A stretch of 32,000 nt of DNA, taken from Nostoc sp. PCC 7120 = FACHB-418 (GTDB lineage Bacteria; Cyanobacteriota; Cyanobacteriia; Cyanobacteriales; Nostocaceae). Where the stretch lies: the NCBI RefSeq assembly GCF_000009705.1, contig NC_003272.1, positions 2,880,001 through 2,912,000 of the forward strand. The letters are read 5' to 3'. Numbering within the stretch: position 1 is the stretch's first letter; each line of letters opens with the position of its first letter. Positions 24,432-29,542 of this stretch are shown here, in pieces. The position numbers and the translations under genes were made by a program. The notes beneath the pieces were generated by a model. The model was not told where the DNA came from, did not search any database, and was given only the letters and a program-made list of their open reading frames with translations.

Positions 24432-24881
24432 TTAACTTATTTCTTCGATTGGATCTTCTGGCGGAGGATAGCGGTTAACTACTTTGTCAGCCGCACGAAT
24501 ATTCACAATTCTTTCTCGGTTTAAATTTAGCGCCGCTATTGTTGCTTTGCCAGTCGGTGTTAACCCATTAATTTTTAGTTTATCGGCAGACCAAATAAAA
24601 TGCTCACTCCAGAGGCTTTGTCTTGGATTAAATAATGGAACTTCTAAACCAGATTCAGGATCTAAAGCTGTGGTTTTGGCTGACTTTCTACGGTTGCAAT
24701 GAAAACAAGCTAAAGCCAAATTCTCTATAGTATCTTCACCGTTTTGACTTAAGGGAATAATATGATCCACCGTAAATAATACATACTGCCATTTTTCAGA
24801 GGCGTGGCAATATTCACATAATTCAGAGGCTCGTTGACGTATTTGTTGCTGAATTGCATCGGAAATTTTACGACTAGCCAC
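24432..24881 (-). CDS. HNH endonuclease
   Basis: CEYCHASEKWQYVLFTVDHIIPLSQNGEDTIENLALACFHCNRRKS has HNH/zinc-finger spacing. The start is a GTG at 24881. Confidence 0.85.
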   Translation of the reverse strand: MASRKISDAIQQQIRQRASELCEYCHASEKWQYVLFTVDHIIPLSQNGEDTIENLALACFHCNRRKSAKTTALDPESGLEVPLFNPRQSLWSEHFIWSADKLKINGLTPTGKATIAALNLNRERIVNIRAADKVVNRYPPPEDPIEEIS

Positions 24882-24897
24882 ATTTATATAATGCTGG

Positions 24898-25164
24898 TTA
24901 TTGGGGGTTTTGTAAAAGATTGCGAGCTATGCGATTGAGAAAACTCAGGTAGTCGTCAATTTCTTCGTAGCTATCTAGTTCTTGTTCTTCTTCGGATGTG
25001 AGTGGAGAAATTAGTTGTTTGGCTAGTAAAACTTCAATGCGGTTTTGGACAATATTAGAAGCTCTAAATATAGGTATTCCCGCTTGTAACTCAATGCTGA
25101 TTACACCCTCTAAAGGTAAGTTAGCTGGTAGATTGTGAAGCTTTGGCAGCAATGGAGTTGTCAT
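24898..25164 (-). CDS. Small protein with an acidic C-terminus, encoded immediately upstream of the HNH nuclease (candidate partner or immunity protein)
   Basis: The ATG at 25164 gives MTTPLLPKLHNLPANLPLEGVISIELQAGIPIFRASNIVQNRIEVLLAKQLISPLTSEEEQELDSYEEIDDYLSFLNRIARNLL. Its stop lies 16 nt from the HNH start. The track start at 25203 is a TTG. Confidence 0.6.
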   Translation of the reverse strand: MTTPLLPKLHNLPANLPLEGVISIELQAGIPIFRASNIVQNRIEVLLAKQLISPLTSEEEQELDSYEEIDDYLSFLNRIARNLLQNPQ

Positions 25165-25225
25165 AGTTAATTCTATGAAATGTTGTGATTGATTATAGCT
25201 CAATACGGTTTAGTTAAGAGAATAG

Positions 25226-25420: not shown

Positions 25421-25837
25421 TTATAATTTCAATAATAGTTGTTGGTAGGTAACAATTTCAGTATTTTCAAATCTTTCAATCATTAATAAATCTTGATCAC
25501 CAGTAACTAAAAAATTAGCATTACTATCTTTTGCTAATGCTAAGAGATAATTATCTTTCGGATCTCGACAAATAGATACTTCTGTTGTAATTATTATAAA
25601 TAAACCAATAGCCTGCAAAATTTGAATTAATTCATCAACTTTGTTGCGCGGAAAATATTTTTGTAACTTAGGACGTTGAGTTACTATGATAATTTCCTGT
25701 AATATTTCCTCAGAAATCACTACTTGGACTGTTTCTTCAACTAAAAGATTCTTTAATTCTTTCAATCCCTTACCAATCAGAAAGCTAATCCAAAGATTAG
25801 TATCAATAATTATCTTGATTGCTTTGTTTTCTGGCAT
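25421..25837 (-). CDS. PIN-domain toxin (TIGR00305-like putative toxin component)
   Basis: MPENKAIKIIIDTNLWISFLIGKG...LALAKDSNANFLVTGDQDLL carries the PIN acidic residues in the usual contexts (DTN and TGD-D). Confidence 0.8.
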   Translation of the reverse strand: MPENKAIKIIIDTNLWISFLIGKGLKELKNLLVEETVQVVISEEILQEIIIVTQRPKLQKYFPRNKVDELIQILQAIGLFIIITTEVSICRDPKDNYLLALAKDSNANFLVTGDQDLLMIERFENTEIVTYQQLLLKL

Positions 25838-26051
25838 AAATTTGAGAACGGACGTTTTCTACTTCCTCTGTAATTTCCTCTAAAGATAATTCATCAGTTT
25901 GAAATGTTTCTAGTAACTGGCTTAACTTCTTATTCAATGTTTCTTTTTCTAGCTCTTTGCTGAGTAAAAGCTTTTCTGAATCAGACAGTTGTTTAACTAG
26001 AGTAAGAATTTGCTCAAATGTCAAGGGTAGTTGATAGGTATTTTGTAACAT
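25803..26051 (-). CDS. Antitoxin-like helical protein paired with the PIN toxin
   Basis: The ATG at 26051 gives MLQNTYQLPLTFEQILTLVKQLSDSEKLLLSKELEKETLNKKLSQLLETFQTDELSLEEITEEVENVRSQIYARKQ. Its 3' end overlaps the PIN start by 35 nt. The track ORF extends to a TTG at 26213, which adds a GC-rich hydrophobic segment of uncertain reality (see findings). Confidence 0.65.
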   Translation of the reverse strand: MLQNTYQLPLTFEQILTLVKQLSDSEKLLLSKELEKETLNKKLSQLLETFQTDELSLEEITEEVENVRSQIYARKQSNQDNY

Positions 26052-26229
26052 AGTGTCAAAGATTCTTTTATTTCTAATTATATGTTTATAGCTTTCTTTT
26101 TTGTCTTTATATTTACAATATCGCACTCCATTCGCTGCATGAAACAAAATCACCGCCGAAACCAAGAGCGAACCCAACGCCACAAGCGACGCAACCATGC
26201 CCAAAAACCACAAACAGAAGATATCAGTT

Positions 26230-28653
26230 TTATCTTCTAAATTGGGAACTGATTGAAGGCCATAAAAATAGCAGAATCAACCATACAAGGGCAAAGGGAA
26301 AGGCTATCAGCCCAAAAATGAAACACAAAATAAACTGAAACCAACCACGTTGAGCGAATTTTATTAATGATTTTAGCCACTGAGGATAAGGCATAGCTTC
26401 AAAAGGAAGCTGAAGTTCTTGGAAAATCGACTCGGCTTGATGCCAGACTGCAAATGCTTCTCGAATTTTGCCACACCGATAATAAGCATTGCTCAAATTC
26501 ATTAAGGATGTACCTACGCCATTGCGATCGCCTATGTCCCTTTTAATTTCCAAAGACTGCTGGAACAACTCAATCGCCCGTTGGTACTTTCCCAGGGAGG
26601 AGTAAGCAGTACCTAAATTGTTTAAGGATGTACCTACGCCATTGCGATCGCCTATGTCCCTTTTGATTTCCAAAGACTGCTGGTGGAACTCAATCGCCTG
26701 TTGGTACTTTCCCAGAGAGTAGTAAGCATTGCCTAAATTGTTTAAAGATCTACCTACACCATTGCAATCACCTATATCCCTTGATATTTCCAAAGACTGC
26801 TGGTGGAACTCAATCGCCCGTTGGTACTCTCCCAGGAAGTAGTAAGTATTGCCTAAATTGTTTAAGGATATACTTACGCCATTGCGATCACCCATGTCCC
26901 TAAAGATTTCCAAAGACTGCTGGCGGAACTCAATTGCCCGTTGGTACTCTCCCAAGGAATGGTAAGCATTGCCTAAACCAATTAAGGAATTACCTACGCC
27001 ATTGCGATCGCCTATATCTCTCGATATTTCCAAAGACTGCTGGAACAACTCAATCGCCCGTTGGTACTCTCCCACGGAGTTGTAAGCATTGCCTAAACCC
27101 ATTAAGGAACCACCTACGCCATTGCGATCGCCTATATCTCTTGATATTTCCAAAGACTGCTGGAACAACTCAATCGCCCGTTGGTACTCTCCCACGGAGT
27201 TGTAAGTATTGCCTAAACCGATTAAGGAATTACTTACGCCGTTGCGATCGCCTATATCCCTAAATATTTCCAAAGACTGCTGGAACAACTCAATCGCCCG
27301 TTGGTACTCTCCCAGGTAACGGTAAGCATTGCCTAATGCAGTGAGAGAAGCCCCATAATTCCAATTTTCTCGCTCACCAATTTCTTTCCATTTACTGATT
27401 AACTGACCATATAATTCTACTTTGTCTACGAAAAAACCGCACAGGCCTAAAAACTTACTACAGACTCGAATGTTATCAAAGGCAGAGTCATAATCTTGCA
27501 ACTGATAAAAGTGATCAAATATTTCCAAATATTCTCTAACATCGTCTTTTGTTGTCCAAGGTGGTTGTTTAGCAACTGAGCGATAATAATCAATGGCTCG
27601 TTGATGCGCCTCACTCTGATCGCCGGCTTTATACCGCACATACTCCAACACCACAGGCTGAAACTCAAATCGCCGCTTACCATTGAGTTTTTCTACCAAC
27701 AAAGAACGCTTAACAATATTCCTTAATTCTTTCTCAATCTCTGCTGCTGAATTTCCTGGCAACATAGCCACGGCTGCTGCACTGTCAACCGCACCACGAT
27801 ACACACTAATATTCAGCAATAACGCCTTTTGTAACTCACTCAATCTATGAAAACTGGCATCCAACACCAACACCATCCCCACATTTTCCCGGCGATGCAC
27901 ACCTACCACTTGAGAATCTGTCAACAACTGCTGCAAATTCCCTAAGCCTAAATCTGCTAATCTACTTAAATCCGGGTCTTGGGGGTATTCTTCCTTTAAT
28001 AAATCTGCTACTAATCTCAACAATAGGGGATGTCCATCGACTAATTCCACAAACTCCCCTAAATTTCCTTTAATGCCCAATGCGGTTAACAGTGCTACCC
28101 CTTCATCTACTTGTAAACCTTTCAGGGTTAACCACTCAAAGCCTTTTAATTCTGGTCTTTCCCTGGTGGTGACTAGCACCTTACTATTACCACCAGATTC
28201 GATCCATGCTTGGAAAAAGTCGCCGTAAAATAAACTTCCCCACTGTCTATCAGGTTGTAATACACTTTCCAGGTTGTCAATAATCAGTAAAAATTGCCCA
28301 GAACGTAAACACCTAACCAACGCCTCCACTAACTGCGTTTCTTGTTCTGGTACATAAAAGCCAAATTCTGTTAATACTTGTCTGGCTAAATCGCTAAAAC
28401 TTGCACCATTACTGACATCAGCCCAAAACCGCTTGGGAAAATCTGCTATTTCGTCATAAATCTTCGTCGCCAGCGTTGATTTACCTGTACCACCGATGCC
28501 TTCTATACCGATTAAAAAGGTATTATCATCAGTTAACCATTGCTGTATTTGAGCGTATTCTTTTGTTCGTCCTTGCCAGTAAGCCAAACTTTTACCGGGA
28601 TTCCCCGCTTTGAGAACCCCCGGCGATTCCGTCTTGGTACTGCTTTCTATCAA
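26230..28653 (-). CDS. STAND NTPase: NB-ARC (AP-ATPase) domain, helical linker, about 8 TPR units and a hydrophobic C-terminal tail (NLR-like)
   Basis: P-loop GIEGIGGTGKSTLA (28474-28500). RNBS-A-like RFWADVS. Walker B LLIIDNLE. RNBS-B-like SKVLVTTR. GLPL-like DGHPLLL. Then 40-aa TPR units GEYQRAIELFQQSLEIxRDIGDRNGVxxSLxxLGNxY. The tail reads WFQFILCFIFGLIAFPFALVWLILLFLWP. The only start codon before the P-loop is TTG (28653); there is no ATG or GTG. Confidence 0.9.
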   Translation of the reverse strand: MIESSTKTESPGVLKAGNPGKSLAYWQGRTKEYAQIQQWLTDDNTFLIGIEGIGGTGKSTLATKIYDEIADFPKRFWADVSNGASFSDLARQVLTEFGFYVPEQETQLVEALVRCLRSGQFLLIIDNLESVLQPDRQWGSLFYGDFFQAWIESGGNSKVLVTTRERPELKGFEWLTLKGLQVDEGVALLTALGIKGNLGEFVELVDGHPLLLRLVADLLKEEYPQDPDLSRLADLGLGNLQQLLTDSQVVGVHRRENVGMVLVLDASFHRLSELQKALLLNISVYRGAVDSAAAVAMLPGNSAAEIEKELRNIVKRSLLVEKLNGKRRFEFQPVVLEYVRYKAGDQSEAHQRAIDYYRSVAKQPPWTTKDDVREYLEIFDHFYQLQDYDSAFDNIRVCSKFLGLCGFFVDKVELYGQLISKWKEIGERENWNYGASLTALGNAYRYLGEYQRAIELFQQSLEIFRDIGDRNGVSNSLIGLGNTYNSVGEYQRAIELFQQSLEISRDIGDRNGVGGSLMGLGNAYNSVGEYQRAIELFQQSLEISRDIGDRNGVGNSLIGLGNAYHSLGEYQRAIEFRQQSLEIFRDMGDRNGVSISLNNLGNTYYFLGEYQRAIEFHQQSLEISRDIGDCNGVGRSLNNLGNAYYSLGKYQQAIEFHQQSLEIKRDIGDRNGVGTSLNNLGTAYSSLGKYQRAIELFQQSLEIKRDIGDRNGVGTSLMNLSNAYYRCGKIREAFAVWHQAESIFQELQLPFEAMPYPQWLKSLIKFAQRGWFQFILCFIFGLIAFPFALVWLILLFLWPSISSQFRR
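26400..27365. repeat. Tandem 120-bp coding repeats (TPR units) inside the STAND gene
   Basis: The string (A/G)TTGC(G/A)ATC(G/A)CC(T/C)AT recurs at 26521, 26641, 26761, 26881, 27001, 27121 and 27241, an exact 120-bp period. Units 27001-27120 and 27121-27240 differ at about 6 of 120 positions. Five of the seven units contain an intact HIP1 site GCGATCGC; the units at 26761 and 26881 carry degenerate versions. Confidence 0.95.
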
Positions 28654-28700
28654 CTCGACTATTTTTTGCTGTGCAGTACCATAAACAGCAATATAGTTAG

Positions 28701-29135
28701 TTACTTTGGGCTGTTGATATTCTTGGTAAAGTCATATTTTGGCTGATTAACATCACCTGCTGTATTTATCTGTATAGCGTCATTGTAAGCTTGAGCATTG
28801 AGATTAACTGAGCTATTATCAGATTTTGTTACTTGCAAAATCTTGGCTATTTCCTCAGCCAGTGTTGTATCAGCATCCAAAATCTTCTTGAGTTGCACTT
28901 GCAAAACAGTTTGGAAACTTTTGTCCTCTGGATTCTCTGCTAAATCTCCAGCCGCTTCTTTGGCGGCTTCCTTCGCCTCTACTTTAGGATGTAACTTACC
29001 CCAAATAGCCTTGGCTTTATCCCAACCATCTGCACCAGCTTGTTGATATGCACCTTCGGCAACTTTACTACCCACATTCAGCAGAGATGGCAGATAGGGT
29101 GCAAGAAATGTAACGATTGAGGCGATATCTATCAT
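28701..29135 (-). CDS. 144-aa helical protein with a hydrophobic N-terminal helix and a Q/N-rich C-terminal tail; a detached (or frameshifted-off) N-terminal module of the STAND NTPase
   Basis: MIDIASIVTFLAPYLPSLLNVGSKVAEGAYQQAG...KVEAKEAAKEAAGDLAENPEDKSFQTVLQVQLKKILDADTTLAEEIAKILQ...SSVNLNAQAYNDAIQINTAGDVNQPKYDF. Its stop lies 47 nt upstream of the NTPase TTG, and the NTPase frame is already open from 28731. Confidence 0.7.
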   Translation of the reverse strand: MIDIASIVTFLAPYLPSLLNVGSKVAEGAYQQAGADGWDKAKAIWGKLHPKVEAKEAAKEAAGDLAENPEDKSFQTVLQVQLKKILDADTTLAEEIAKILQVTKSDNSSVNLNAQAYNDAIQINTAGDVNQPKYDFTKNINSPK

Positions 29136-29237: not shown

Positions 29238-29325
29238 GACCTAACCCCCAGCCCCTTCCCTACAAGGGAAGGGGAGTAATACTCAAAGCCTCTCTCCTTG
29301 TAGGAGAGAGGTTTGGAGAGAGGTC
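29238..29325. mobile_element. Second copy of the two-hairpin MITE-like core, in the same orientation as 24276-24391
   Basis: CCTAACCCCCAGCCCCTTCCCTACAAGGGAAGGGG...AGCCTCTCTCCTTGTAGGAGAGAGGTTTGGAGAGAGG. It is flanked by direct repeats ATGTAGCAGTTT (29209-29220) and ATGTAGCAGCTT (29358-29369). A related single hairpin AACCCCTTTCC...GGGAAGGGGTT lies at 29443-29469. Confidence 0.6.
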
Positions 29326-29542
29326 AGAGTGCATTGCATACAAACGATAGGCGCTATATGTAGCAGCTTATTGTTGTACTTACAAAGTAAAAATATTAGT
29401 CTAATCTATTACTAGTATTAGGGCATAAGGTGCGATATTTTTAACCCCTTTCCAACACGGGAAGGGGTTATGTTTTATGTATCTCACCTTTACTTAGTGC
29501 GATCGCACCTACTTAGAGGCTATCCTTTGACAATGGAACTGA

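Follow-up and report, generated by a model that had tools for sequence, protein, structure and literature searches.

Probable −1 frameshift coupling of a Bell-domain effector gene to its NLR in Nostoc sp. PCC 7120 and other Nostocales

Four genes are packed closely together on the minus strand at positions 25421–29135 of the window, the 32,000-nucleotide (nt) stretch of the Nostoc sp. PCC 7120 = FACHB-418 chromosome that we analysed (NC_003272.1, positions 2,880,001 to 2,912,000). The question they raise is which of them work together, and as what. A first reading of the letters alone (the original prediction) took them for a single undescribed conflict system, in which a STAND NTPase (signal transduction ATPase with numerous domains) is served by a small helical protein and a PIN RNase. 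Comparison with related loci leads us elsewhere. The account that we favor, with reasonable though not high confidence, is that all2424 and all2423 form a derived BASS10 Bell/NOD-like receptor (NLR) cell-death pair whose receptor would be made by frameshifting, and that the genes behind them are independent cassettes.

Coordinates are those of the window, and its genes and junction features between 24432 and 29135 lie on the minus strand. The four open reading frames (ORFs) and their tight junctions are present in the ORF list as originally described. The first, all2424 (28701–29135), encodes a 144-amino-acid (aa) helical protein of the Bell type. Its stop is separated by 47 nt from the TTG at 28653 that opens all2423 (26230–28653), an 807-aa NB-ARC and TPR STAND NTPase that we call the NLR. 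An antitoxin gene, all2422, and a PIN-domain toxin gene, all2421, follow. The proteins of all2424, all2423 and all2421 were found as exact entries on the Anabaena/Nostoc sp. PCC 7120-type chromosome. Public records disagree about the N-terminus of all2423, giving it 699, 807 or 810 aa, and these three annotated lengths fit with the absence of an obvious start codon. The inconsistent start calls for a correction of the annotation.

Anchoring on the 144-aa protein family, we retrieved 80 genome loci, which are numbered here with an L prefix. An NB-ARC orthologue, 68–90% identical, lies directly downstream on the same strand in approximately 68 of the 80, and this conserved adjacency supports the earlier proposal of a conflict-type pair in which the NB-ARC/TPR NTPase is functionally linked to the helical protein. 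Orthologues of the pair have been cataloged before. One entry in Table S2 of Dyrka et al. 2020 (bioRxiv 10.1101/2020.01.06.895854) is BAY96875.1/BAY96876.1 from Tolypothrix tenuis PCC 7101, classed there as bass_10. Our locus L050 comes from this strain, and the motifs that we read in it are identical to those given in the table. The window Bell protein shares 64% identity with the L050 protein. The preprint was reportedly published later in J Mol Biol. Because orthologues already stand in that table as Bell-domain/BASS10 NLR pairs, the window pair cannot be called undescribed. We are confident that all2424 and all2423 belong to the Bell-domain/BASS10 amyloid-signaling NLR pair family.

A Bell domain is defined as a helical domain of approximately 100 aa, in a protein of approximately 120–140 aa, in which the first helix is hydrophobic and position 2–3 is acidic (Dyrka et al. 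2020). The AlphaFold2 model of all2424, a structure prediction that the original reading had recommended, gives a bundle of five helices (residues 4–19, 24–54, 56–67, 72–88 and 90–101) followed by a low-confidence, N/Q-rich tail (residues 104–144). The N-terminus, MIDIASIVTFLAPYLPSLL, supplies the hydrophobic helix 1 and an aspartate at position 3. From the model and orthology, we place the Bell-type domain at residues 1–103 (28827–29135); membership follows from orthology to the proteins listed by Dyrka et al. The suspicion that this small protein is a membrane-active effector is plausible. Bell pairs are further defined by a neighboring, collinear NB-ARC or NACHT gene with TPR or WD repeats; here, the NB-ARC/TPR gene lies 47 nt downstream on the same strand.

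The all2424 protein has no match in Pfam, NCBIfam or PADLOC, and a Foldseek search of its model against the PDB returned nothing below E = 1 (best 2.9), a result that is uninformative for a small helical bundle. The family comprises at least 207 homologues, nearly all from Nostocales, and its remote members adjoin NB-ARC, NACHT or nSTAND1 NTPases. A distinct, all-in-one effector architecture occurs in L074 (711–4157, plus strand), where a Bell-like domain is fused in a single 1148-aa ORF to DUF7363, CHAT protease and FGE-sulfatase domains.

Two types can be distinguished among the loci: 39 are type 2, and 26 distinct genome junctions, including that of the window, are type 1. The type-2 small protein has 135 aa and the C-terminus ...GDNIQVSANAYDQSTVKQVGKIDANQVSF, its NLR carries an N-terminal extension that begins MAEEP (for example MAEEPSPSNSNNIEMNLTAYGDSKVTQVGQINAAEVKIIV...), and one motif is shared by the Bell C-terminus and the NLR N-terminus. 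All 39 type-2 NLR ORFs start with M[AVI]EE or MEE, as would be expected if the ATG start is conserved. The type-1 NLR instead reads M(E)LLERSTKxESPGVLKAGNP, and the motif is absent. On the Bell side, the type-1 tail is a diverged BASS10 (...NLNAQAYNDAIQINTAGDVNQPKYDFTKNINSPK); in all2424, the BASS10-like, N/Q/G-rich motif VNLNAQAYNDAIQINTAGDVNQPKYDF (residues 110–136, 28728–28808) aligns with the Bell-side BASS10 motif NIQVNANAYNDSTVKQVGKIDANQV of the type-2 orthologues.

The window pair thus resembles the BASS10 pairs of Dyrka et al. in having a Bell protein in the 135–144-aa range with a BASS10-type tail, directly 5′ of a collinear NB-ARC/TPR NLR in Nostocales. It differs from them in two respects. 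Those pairs carry the motif on both proteins and have an ATG-initiated NLR, whereas the annotated window NLR starts MIESSTKTESPGVL and the motif sits on the Bell protein alone. In addition, the window genes are joined by a slippery heptamer and an open −1 frame. Matching motifs of approximately 25 aa on both partners, as found in the 39 type-2 orthologues, would be present in the window only through a predicted −1 trans-frame product. Paired motifs were a requirement of the screen that Dyrka et al. 2020 carried out, and "PCC 7120" is absent from its supplementary tables.

The heptamer C_CCA_AAG (28704–28710), our proposed −1 frameshift site, is followed directly by the Bell TAA at 28701–28703. 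Across the stop codon and the 47-nt spacer (28654–28703), the −1 frame encodes VTNYIAVYGTAQQKIVE and meets no stop before it enters the NTPase ORF. The same ending, C_CCA_AAG TAA, closes the Bell gene in 25 of the 26 distinct genome junctions. The remaining one, L021, has A_AAA_AAG TAA: four bases have changed together and the X_XXY_YYZ pattern is kept. The adjoining TAA is invariant among the 26. In every junction, the −1 frame can be read without a stop from the heptamer into the NLR, while the Bell frame is closed in all 26 and the +1 frame in 18; in shuffled spacers, the −1 frame stays open with a probability of 0.14–0.25 each. On the 5′ side of the heptamer, at a distance of 0–21 nt, the −1 frame meets a stop, which confines the overlap of the two frames to the heptamer. 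This is the arrangement expected of a programmed −1 frameshift site, where the sole overlap of the ORFs holds a 0-frame heptamer of the form X_XXY_YYZ.

Two further properties suggest that the site is conserved for more than the protein it encodes. A single codon is kept in only 11 of the 38 invariant-residue columns of the Bell gene, and all four of the invariant proline columns use two or three codons each. Because the codons of invariant residues vary elsewhere in the gene, the encoded amino acids do not explain the invariance of the heptamer. The spacer is also constrained in length, with insertions and deletions across type-1 junctions that are all multiples of three (−3, −6 and −9 nt). 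We extended the comparison to eight metagenome junctions (L084, L085, L087 and L088–L092). Five of these (L088–L092) have the same form as type 1 with an identical heptamer, and L087 keeps the heptamer with a stop two codons later. The divergent pair in L085 has A_AAA_AAG TAA followed by 73 open −1-frame codons that lead into an NB-ARC domain (E = 4.5e-20). All eight retain A_AAG, and in none of them is the −1 frame closed.

Both heptamers have precedents. A_AAA_AAG is the frameshift heptamer of dnaX and C_CCA_AAG the shift site of E. coli copA, and the phage tail-chaperone genes G/GT are also −1 frameshifted. E. coli copA is a case of programmed −1 frameshifting, and both C_CCA_AAG and A_AAA_AAG have been reported among the most shift-prone heptamers in E. 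coli (review PMC5009743). The type-1 junction therefore resembles bacterial −1 frameshifting on X_XXA_AAG in its heptamers and in the predicted outcome, a short and a long product that share an N-terminus in a fixed ratio. It is unlike dnaX, copA and G/GT in that the long product would join an immune-type receptor to the effector it controls, and in that the shift site abuts the 0-frame stop. From this pattern of conservation, we think it likely that programmed −1 frameshifting joins the Bell gene to the NLR in type 1.

How else might the NLR be translated? Two ordinary genes could lie here with no recoding at all: all2423 would start at a TTG or GTG by termination-reinitiation or coupling, its N-terminal BASS10 would have been lost, it would communicate with the Bell protein by some other route or have no contact with it, and the heptamer and spacer would be conserved through the ...SPK end of the Bell protein, its stop and an RNA or regulatory element serving translation of the second gene. 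We regard this alternative as unlikely, though far from negligible. Of 25 loci, 20 have a GTG or TTG at 45–57 nt past the heptamer (in the window, the TTG at 28653) that could support independent initiation. However, no ATG, GTG or TTG precedes the conserved ESPGVLKAGNP segment in the other five loci, and only one of the 25 has an ATG there. Candidate NLR starts in type-1 loci are not preceded by a Shine-Dalgarno-like sequence. The NLR ORF begins 17–47 nt after the Bell stop, or 104–113 nt after it where the first candidate start is further downstream.

The spacer itself gives signals in both directions. Its codon-position entropies in the −1 frame are 0.53, 0.41 and 0.45, compared to 0.34, 0.21 and 0.84 in undisputed coding sequence. 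Since the third-position excess is missing, the openness of the frame could partly reflect conservation at the nucleotide level rather than translation, as expected if no recoding takes place. The spacer also contains a conserved potential stem-loop, GGTACTGC, a 29-nt loop and GCAGTACC (28633–28683), identified by pairing across junctions. Yet two ordinary genes would leave unexplained the concerted change from C_CCA to A_AAA in L021 and L085, the multiple-of-three indels and the 73-codon open frame of L085. A promoter-like match (TCAACA, 16 nt, TATATT) at 28717–28690 overlaps the window junction, in keeping with two ordinary genes. We rejected it as a conserved promoter, as inspection of the junction alignment shows that its hexamers vary; promoter-like matches are also near chance level, with 17 found versus 12.5 expected.

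The alternative starts and the missing codon signature weigh against frameshifting, and so do several other observations. In L084, only A_AAG of the heptamer is kept (C_GTA_AAG), with the −1 frame still open, making it the exception to a site that is otherwise conserved beyond amino-acid need. The stem-loop begins 20–23 nt downstream of the heptamer, whereas a stimulatory 3′ structure would be expected at 5–9 nt, and it contains a single covarying pair (AU 11, GU 8, GC 5). The BASS10-like motif of type 1, a candidate amyloid former, includes a proline. Finally, with the predicted junction protein as query, we found no orthologue in which Bell and NLR are fused in frame: no match covered more than 66% of the query, and those at 65–66% are type-2 NLRs whose alignment begins at the motif.

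We searched for a stimulator with RNAalifold and pair counting. At the shift site in these junctions, we identified neither a 3′ stimulator close by nor a Shine-Dalgarno-like element on the 5′ side, and the distant stem was the only candidate found. This stem and a second helix tested with it together have 92% of cells paired, compared to 36–57% in slid controls. The stem at 28633–28683 is a possible frameshift stimulator with atypical spacing. An Rfam scan of the whole window returned no match, and a tRNA scan of the whole window found none.

Built from the sequence, the predicted trans-frame product of all2424 and all2423 has 968 aa, and VTNYIAVYGTAQQK would be a tryptic peptide of it. The BLASTP alignment of this predicted protein with the N-termini of type-2 NLRs is colinear, crosses the junction and takes in the BASS10 region. 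Its linker, TAQQKIVELIESSTK, resembles by eye the type-2b NLR linker TAEQVQFLVHLESSTK. The original prediction had remarked that the P-loop lies near the N-terminus of the NTPase and that the protein therefore carries no fused effector domain. The first part stands, with GIGGTGKST at residues 52–60 of the 807-aa ORF (28474–28500). The second is probably wrong at the protein level, as the conserved −1 signal would fuse the whole 144-aa protein to the N-terminus.

The motifs GIGGTGKST, LLIIDNLE, SKVLVTTR and GHPLLL, all noted earlier, can be read in the translation of the NTPase, and a Pfam scan places NB-ARC (PF00931, E = 2.6e-13) at residues 31–220 (27994–28563) and also detects TPR_12 (E = 9.5e-70). 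The TPR units are near-identical repeats of 40 aa (26483–27336); Tandem Repeats Finder gives a 120-nt period, 7.1 copies and 88% identity. NLR orthologues differ in length in 40-aa steps (704, 744, 784 and so on up to 984), and the TPR array of all2423 is a variable sensor array. PADLOC, which covers Avs, bNACHT, Septu and other systems, gave no system-specific match on the NTPase or its 144-aa partner; on the NTPase, it returned generic TPR matches only, none to Avs or bNACHT.

At its C-terminus, all2423 has a hydrophobic, transmembrane-like tail, WFQFILCFIFGLIAFPFALVWLILLFLW (26260–26343; Kyte-Doolittle 19-residue maximum 2.76). A tail of this kind occurs in 7 of the 52 NLR C-termini examined (the window, L004, L020, L028, L033, L062 and L066), and the majority have a W/R-rich amphipathic tail instead, such as RRGFWAWLRRLWRWVRSWFRR. 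Both alternatives suggest that the receptor associates with the membrane.

Types 1 and 2 sit between shared flanking genes, and they interleave in a neighbor-joining NB-ARC tree. L011, from Nostoc parmelioides, is the closest locus with the flanks of the window (an M15 peptidase gene upstream and a 96%-identical alaS downstream), and yet it is type 2. A single clean type-1 clade was considered and discarded, because the NB-ARC tree does not separate the types. Given the shared flanks and the interleaved tree, alternative forms of one locus, subject to recombination or allelic exchange, fit better than separate gene families. The sequences are compatible with an origin of type 1 in which the motifs of the Bell side and the NLR side recombined and 47 nt were then inserted. 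Within type 2, the Bell-NLR intergenic region has grown to 300–1000 nt (L022, L030, L033, L024, L034, L036, L038, L039, L042, L046, L051, L052, L056, L057 and L066), by short tandem repeats (VLNRNGR or SSEHELP in spurious ORFs) or by an inserted DUF433+DUF5615 cassette.

An NLR that lacks its own motif and an ATG might also be a ruin: a receptor once fused or paired, broken by an indel and left as a non-functional remnant in PCC 7120. Fragmented NLR ORFs do occur in some assemblies (L034, L036 and L051). Against decay, the same junction and intact full-length ORFs recur in 26 distinct genome sequences from Anabaena, Nostoc, Aulosira, Nodularia, Calothrix, Aphanizomenon and Dolichospermum, and the NB-ARC domain is 68–90% identical with a normal coding signature. 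We consider a decaying locus extremely improbable. Returning to frameshifting, we would go one step further, with less assurance than for the frameshift itself. The type-1 receptor may well have no translation start of its own and be made only as a −1 extension of its own effector, in at least 26 Nostocales genome sequences including PCC 7120. It would bring the receptor-side amyloid nucleator in cis and at a low receptor-to-effector ratio, and the two forms would be interchangeable and recombine at one locus.

Do the genes 3′ of the NLR belong to the system? The antitoxin ORF has a long form of 136 aa with a TTG start (25803–26213), beginning 16 nt after the NTPase stop. A match to the VapB15 family model NF047401 (E = 5.7e-29, 100.1 bits versus a cut-off of 80) covers only residues 61–126 of this long form. 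The real start is therefore probably the ATG at 26051, which gives an 82-aa antitoxin (25803–26051) and a spacing of 178 nt. The antitoxin ORF overlaps by 35 nt the 138-aa PIN-domain toxin all2421 (25421–25837), which matches TIGR00305 (E = 3.4e-32, 111.1 bits versus a cut-off of 29.15) and PIN_3 (E = 6.7e-18). A type II VapBC module consists of a VapB antitoxin gene and, overlapping its end, a PIN toxin gene, and here both proteins score above the curated cut-offs. As such, all2422/all2421 is ordinary and shows no difference from other modules; only its place in a hotspot beside an NLR sets it apart.

A second accessory cassette (24432–25203) follows, consisting of a 101-aa protein (24898–25203) and an HNH endonuclease (24432–24881; PF01844, E = 2.3e-17). 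The HNH protein matches PtuB (Septu/retron) models in PADLOC, which found no PtuA near it, and the 101-aa partner has no family match. The two recur as a unit in other Nostoc loci. In general, the cassettes 3′ of the NLR (L004–L078; 24432–26213 in the window) are co-directional and interchangeable, and they include DUF4288 with a 149-aa partner.

For the cassette counts, we used the 58 loci whose NLR is intact. Twelve of them carry VapB15 and nine its PIN partner, compared to 13 with RHH+PIN, 10–11 with DUF433+DUF5615, 24 with DUF4288, 9 with the 101-aa protein of the window and 4 with its HNH partner. Their order varies, and they are flanked by the NLR on one side and housekeeping genes on the other, such as one for Mg-protoporphyrin methyltransferase or for a putative cation/H+ antiporter of 693 aa. 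L011, with the same flanks as the window, has no cassette at all. A terminator-like 9-bp hairpin with a U-rich tract spans the NTPase stop (26215–26239; RNA fold −14 kcal/mol, z = −1.97); a consensus terminator scan did not flag it.

These data bear on the four-gene operon of the original prediction, in which the STAND NTPase would control neighboring effectors, including the PIN RNase, as a new conflict system. The single direction and tight spacing of the genes are in keeping with it, as are the nearly constant co-direction of 3′ cassettes with the NLR and the position of VapB15/PIN as first cassette after the NLR in L028, L057, L063 and L065. But the VapB15/PIN pair is found in a minority of loci and in varying positions, and RHH+PIN, DUF433+DUF5615, DUF4288 or the 101-aa+HNH pair take its place. 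It also qualifies by curated thresholds as a self-contained toxin-antitoxin (TA) module, is missing from L011 and is set off by the hairpin past the NLR stop, and the Bell/NLR pair alone has already been described. We judge the four-gene operon very improbable. Of the proposed synteny, the Bell/NLR half held and the VapB15/PIN half did not. The stand-alone TA module that the original prediction had named as grounds for its own rejection describes the PIN pair, a swappable cassette, better than a system component does.

Because the 3′ region is a mosaic, L011 is free of cassettes and the hairpin lies at the NLR stop, we take the core to be the two-gene pair. It is highly likely that the TA cassettes are independent of it, and neither the VapBC nor the HNH cassette should be counted as a part of the system in annotation.

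How would a frameshift-made receptor work? We propose that most ribosomes would stop at the TAA and release the free 144-aa Bell-BASS10 protein, while some would slip by −1 on C_CCA_AAG and make the 968-aa chain of Bell, BASS10, linker, NB-ARC, TPR and hydrophobic tail. By analogy with related systems, the TPR array would sense a trigger, phage or another non-self cue, leading to NB-ARC oligomerization and clustering of the N-terminal BASS10 segments. Once clustered, the segments could fold into amyloid and impose this fold on the pool of free Bell-BASS10. This would release the hydrophobic N-terminal helix of Bell, which would permeabilize the membrane and kill the cell. In such a scheme, the frameshift would replace the duplicated trans motif of type 2 and fix a low receptor-to-effector ratio.

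Parallels to this mechanism are known from fungi and from E. coli. In fungi, HET-S is a HeLo pore-former and NWD2 an NLR with a matching prion motif. As proposed here, NLR oligomerization templates the amyloid motif and an N-terminal membrane-inserting helix is released; HET-S/NWD2 differs in being eukaryotic, with an HRAM motif, a NACHT-WD NLR and separately transcribed genes. Bacterial NLR/amyloid pairs are thought to be prokaryotic counterparts of HET-S/NWD2 and of necroptosis-type signaling, and in cyanobacteria they are only predicted. Dyrka et al. 2020 describe BASS motifs as forming prions and fibrils; amyloid or prion formation and fold transfer were shown for BASS1 and BASS3 only in that preprint, and for BASS11 in E. 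coli (10.1101/2024.11.07.622273).

The closest experimental parallel is Bab/Agp of E. coli, an abortive-infection system in which amyloid templating of a Bell-like domain was shown to damage the membrane and kill the cell (Ibarlosa et al. 2024, bioRxiv 10.1101/2024.11.07.622273). As proposed for the window pair, the killer is a small helical protein of Bell-like type that ends in an amyloid motif and is activated by the TPR-containing sensor of a neighboring gene. It differs in its motif (BASS11), its location in a prophage defense island and its two separate proteins made with no recoding. The predicted trans-frame protein is also similar to all-in-one NLRs (Avs, bNACHT and rare Bell-NLR fusions) in combining effector, NOD and repeats. 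Unlike them, it would be fused by recoding rather than in frame, and it would keep an amyloid motif between effector and NOD.

The Bell/NLR kind of system is thus already known, and the frameshift-coupled form is new within the literature searched. Such a form is not mentioned in Dyrka et al. 2020, whose text does not mention frameshifting, or in Ibarlosa et al. 2024, nor in the literature searched on frameshifting together with Bell, BASS, NLR or NB-ARC; the locus tags all2423 and all2424 do not appear in the literature searched either. If our reading is correct, this would be the first programmed recoding to couple an NLR to its executioner in that literature. It would also explain why many Nostocales Bell/NLR pairs escape searches for paired motifs, and it would offer a simple genetic handle, in the tractable Anabaena PCC 7120, on receptor/effector titration, amyloid signaling and the trigger.

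Some smaller observations remain. Two metagenome contigs, L102 and L108, hold another Bell-type pair with a different paired motif. In L102, GDNANVVGQ[MI]ND[TA]GS[VI]D is found on both proteins, and the downstream ORF starts right after the Bell stop. It seems to represent one more BASS-like family.

Upstream of the Bell gene, a stretch of 407 nt contains several G+C-rich palindromes (29240–29480), for example TAACCCCTTTCCAACACGGGAAGGGGTTA at 29442–29470; further pairs are CTCTCTCC...GGAGAGAG and CCCCTTCCC...GGGAAGGGG. They may be repeat elements or the terminator of the M15 peptidase gene. Elsewhere in the window, the segment 20001–21000, between the gene for a GGDEF protein and alaS, has an unusually low G+C content of 0.275, compared to approximately 0.41 for the whole window.

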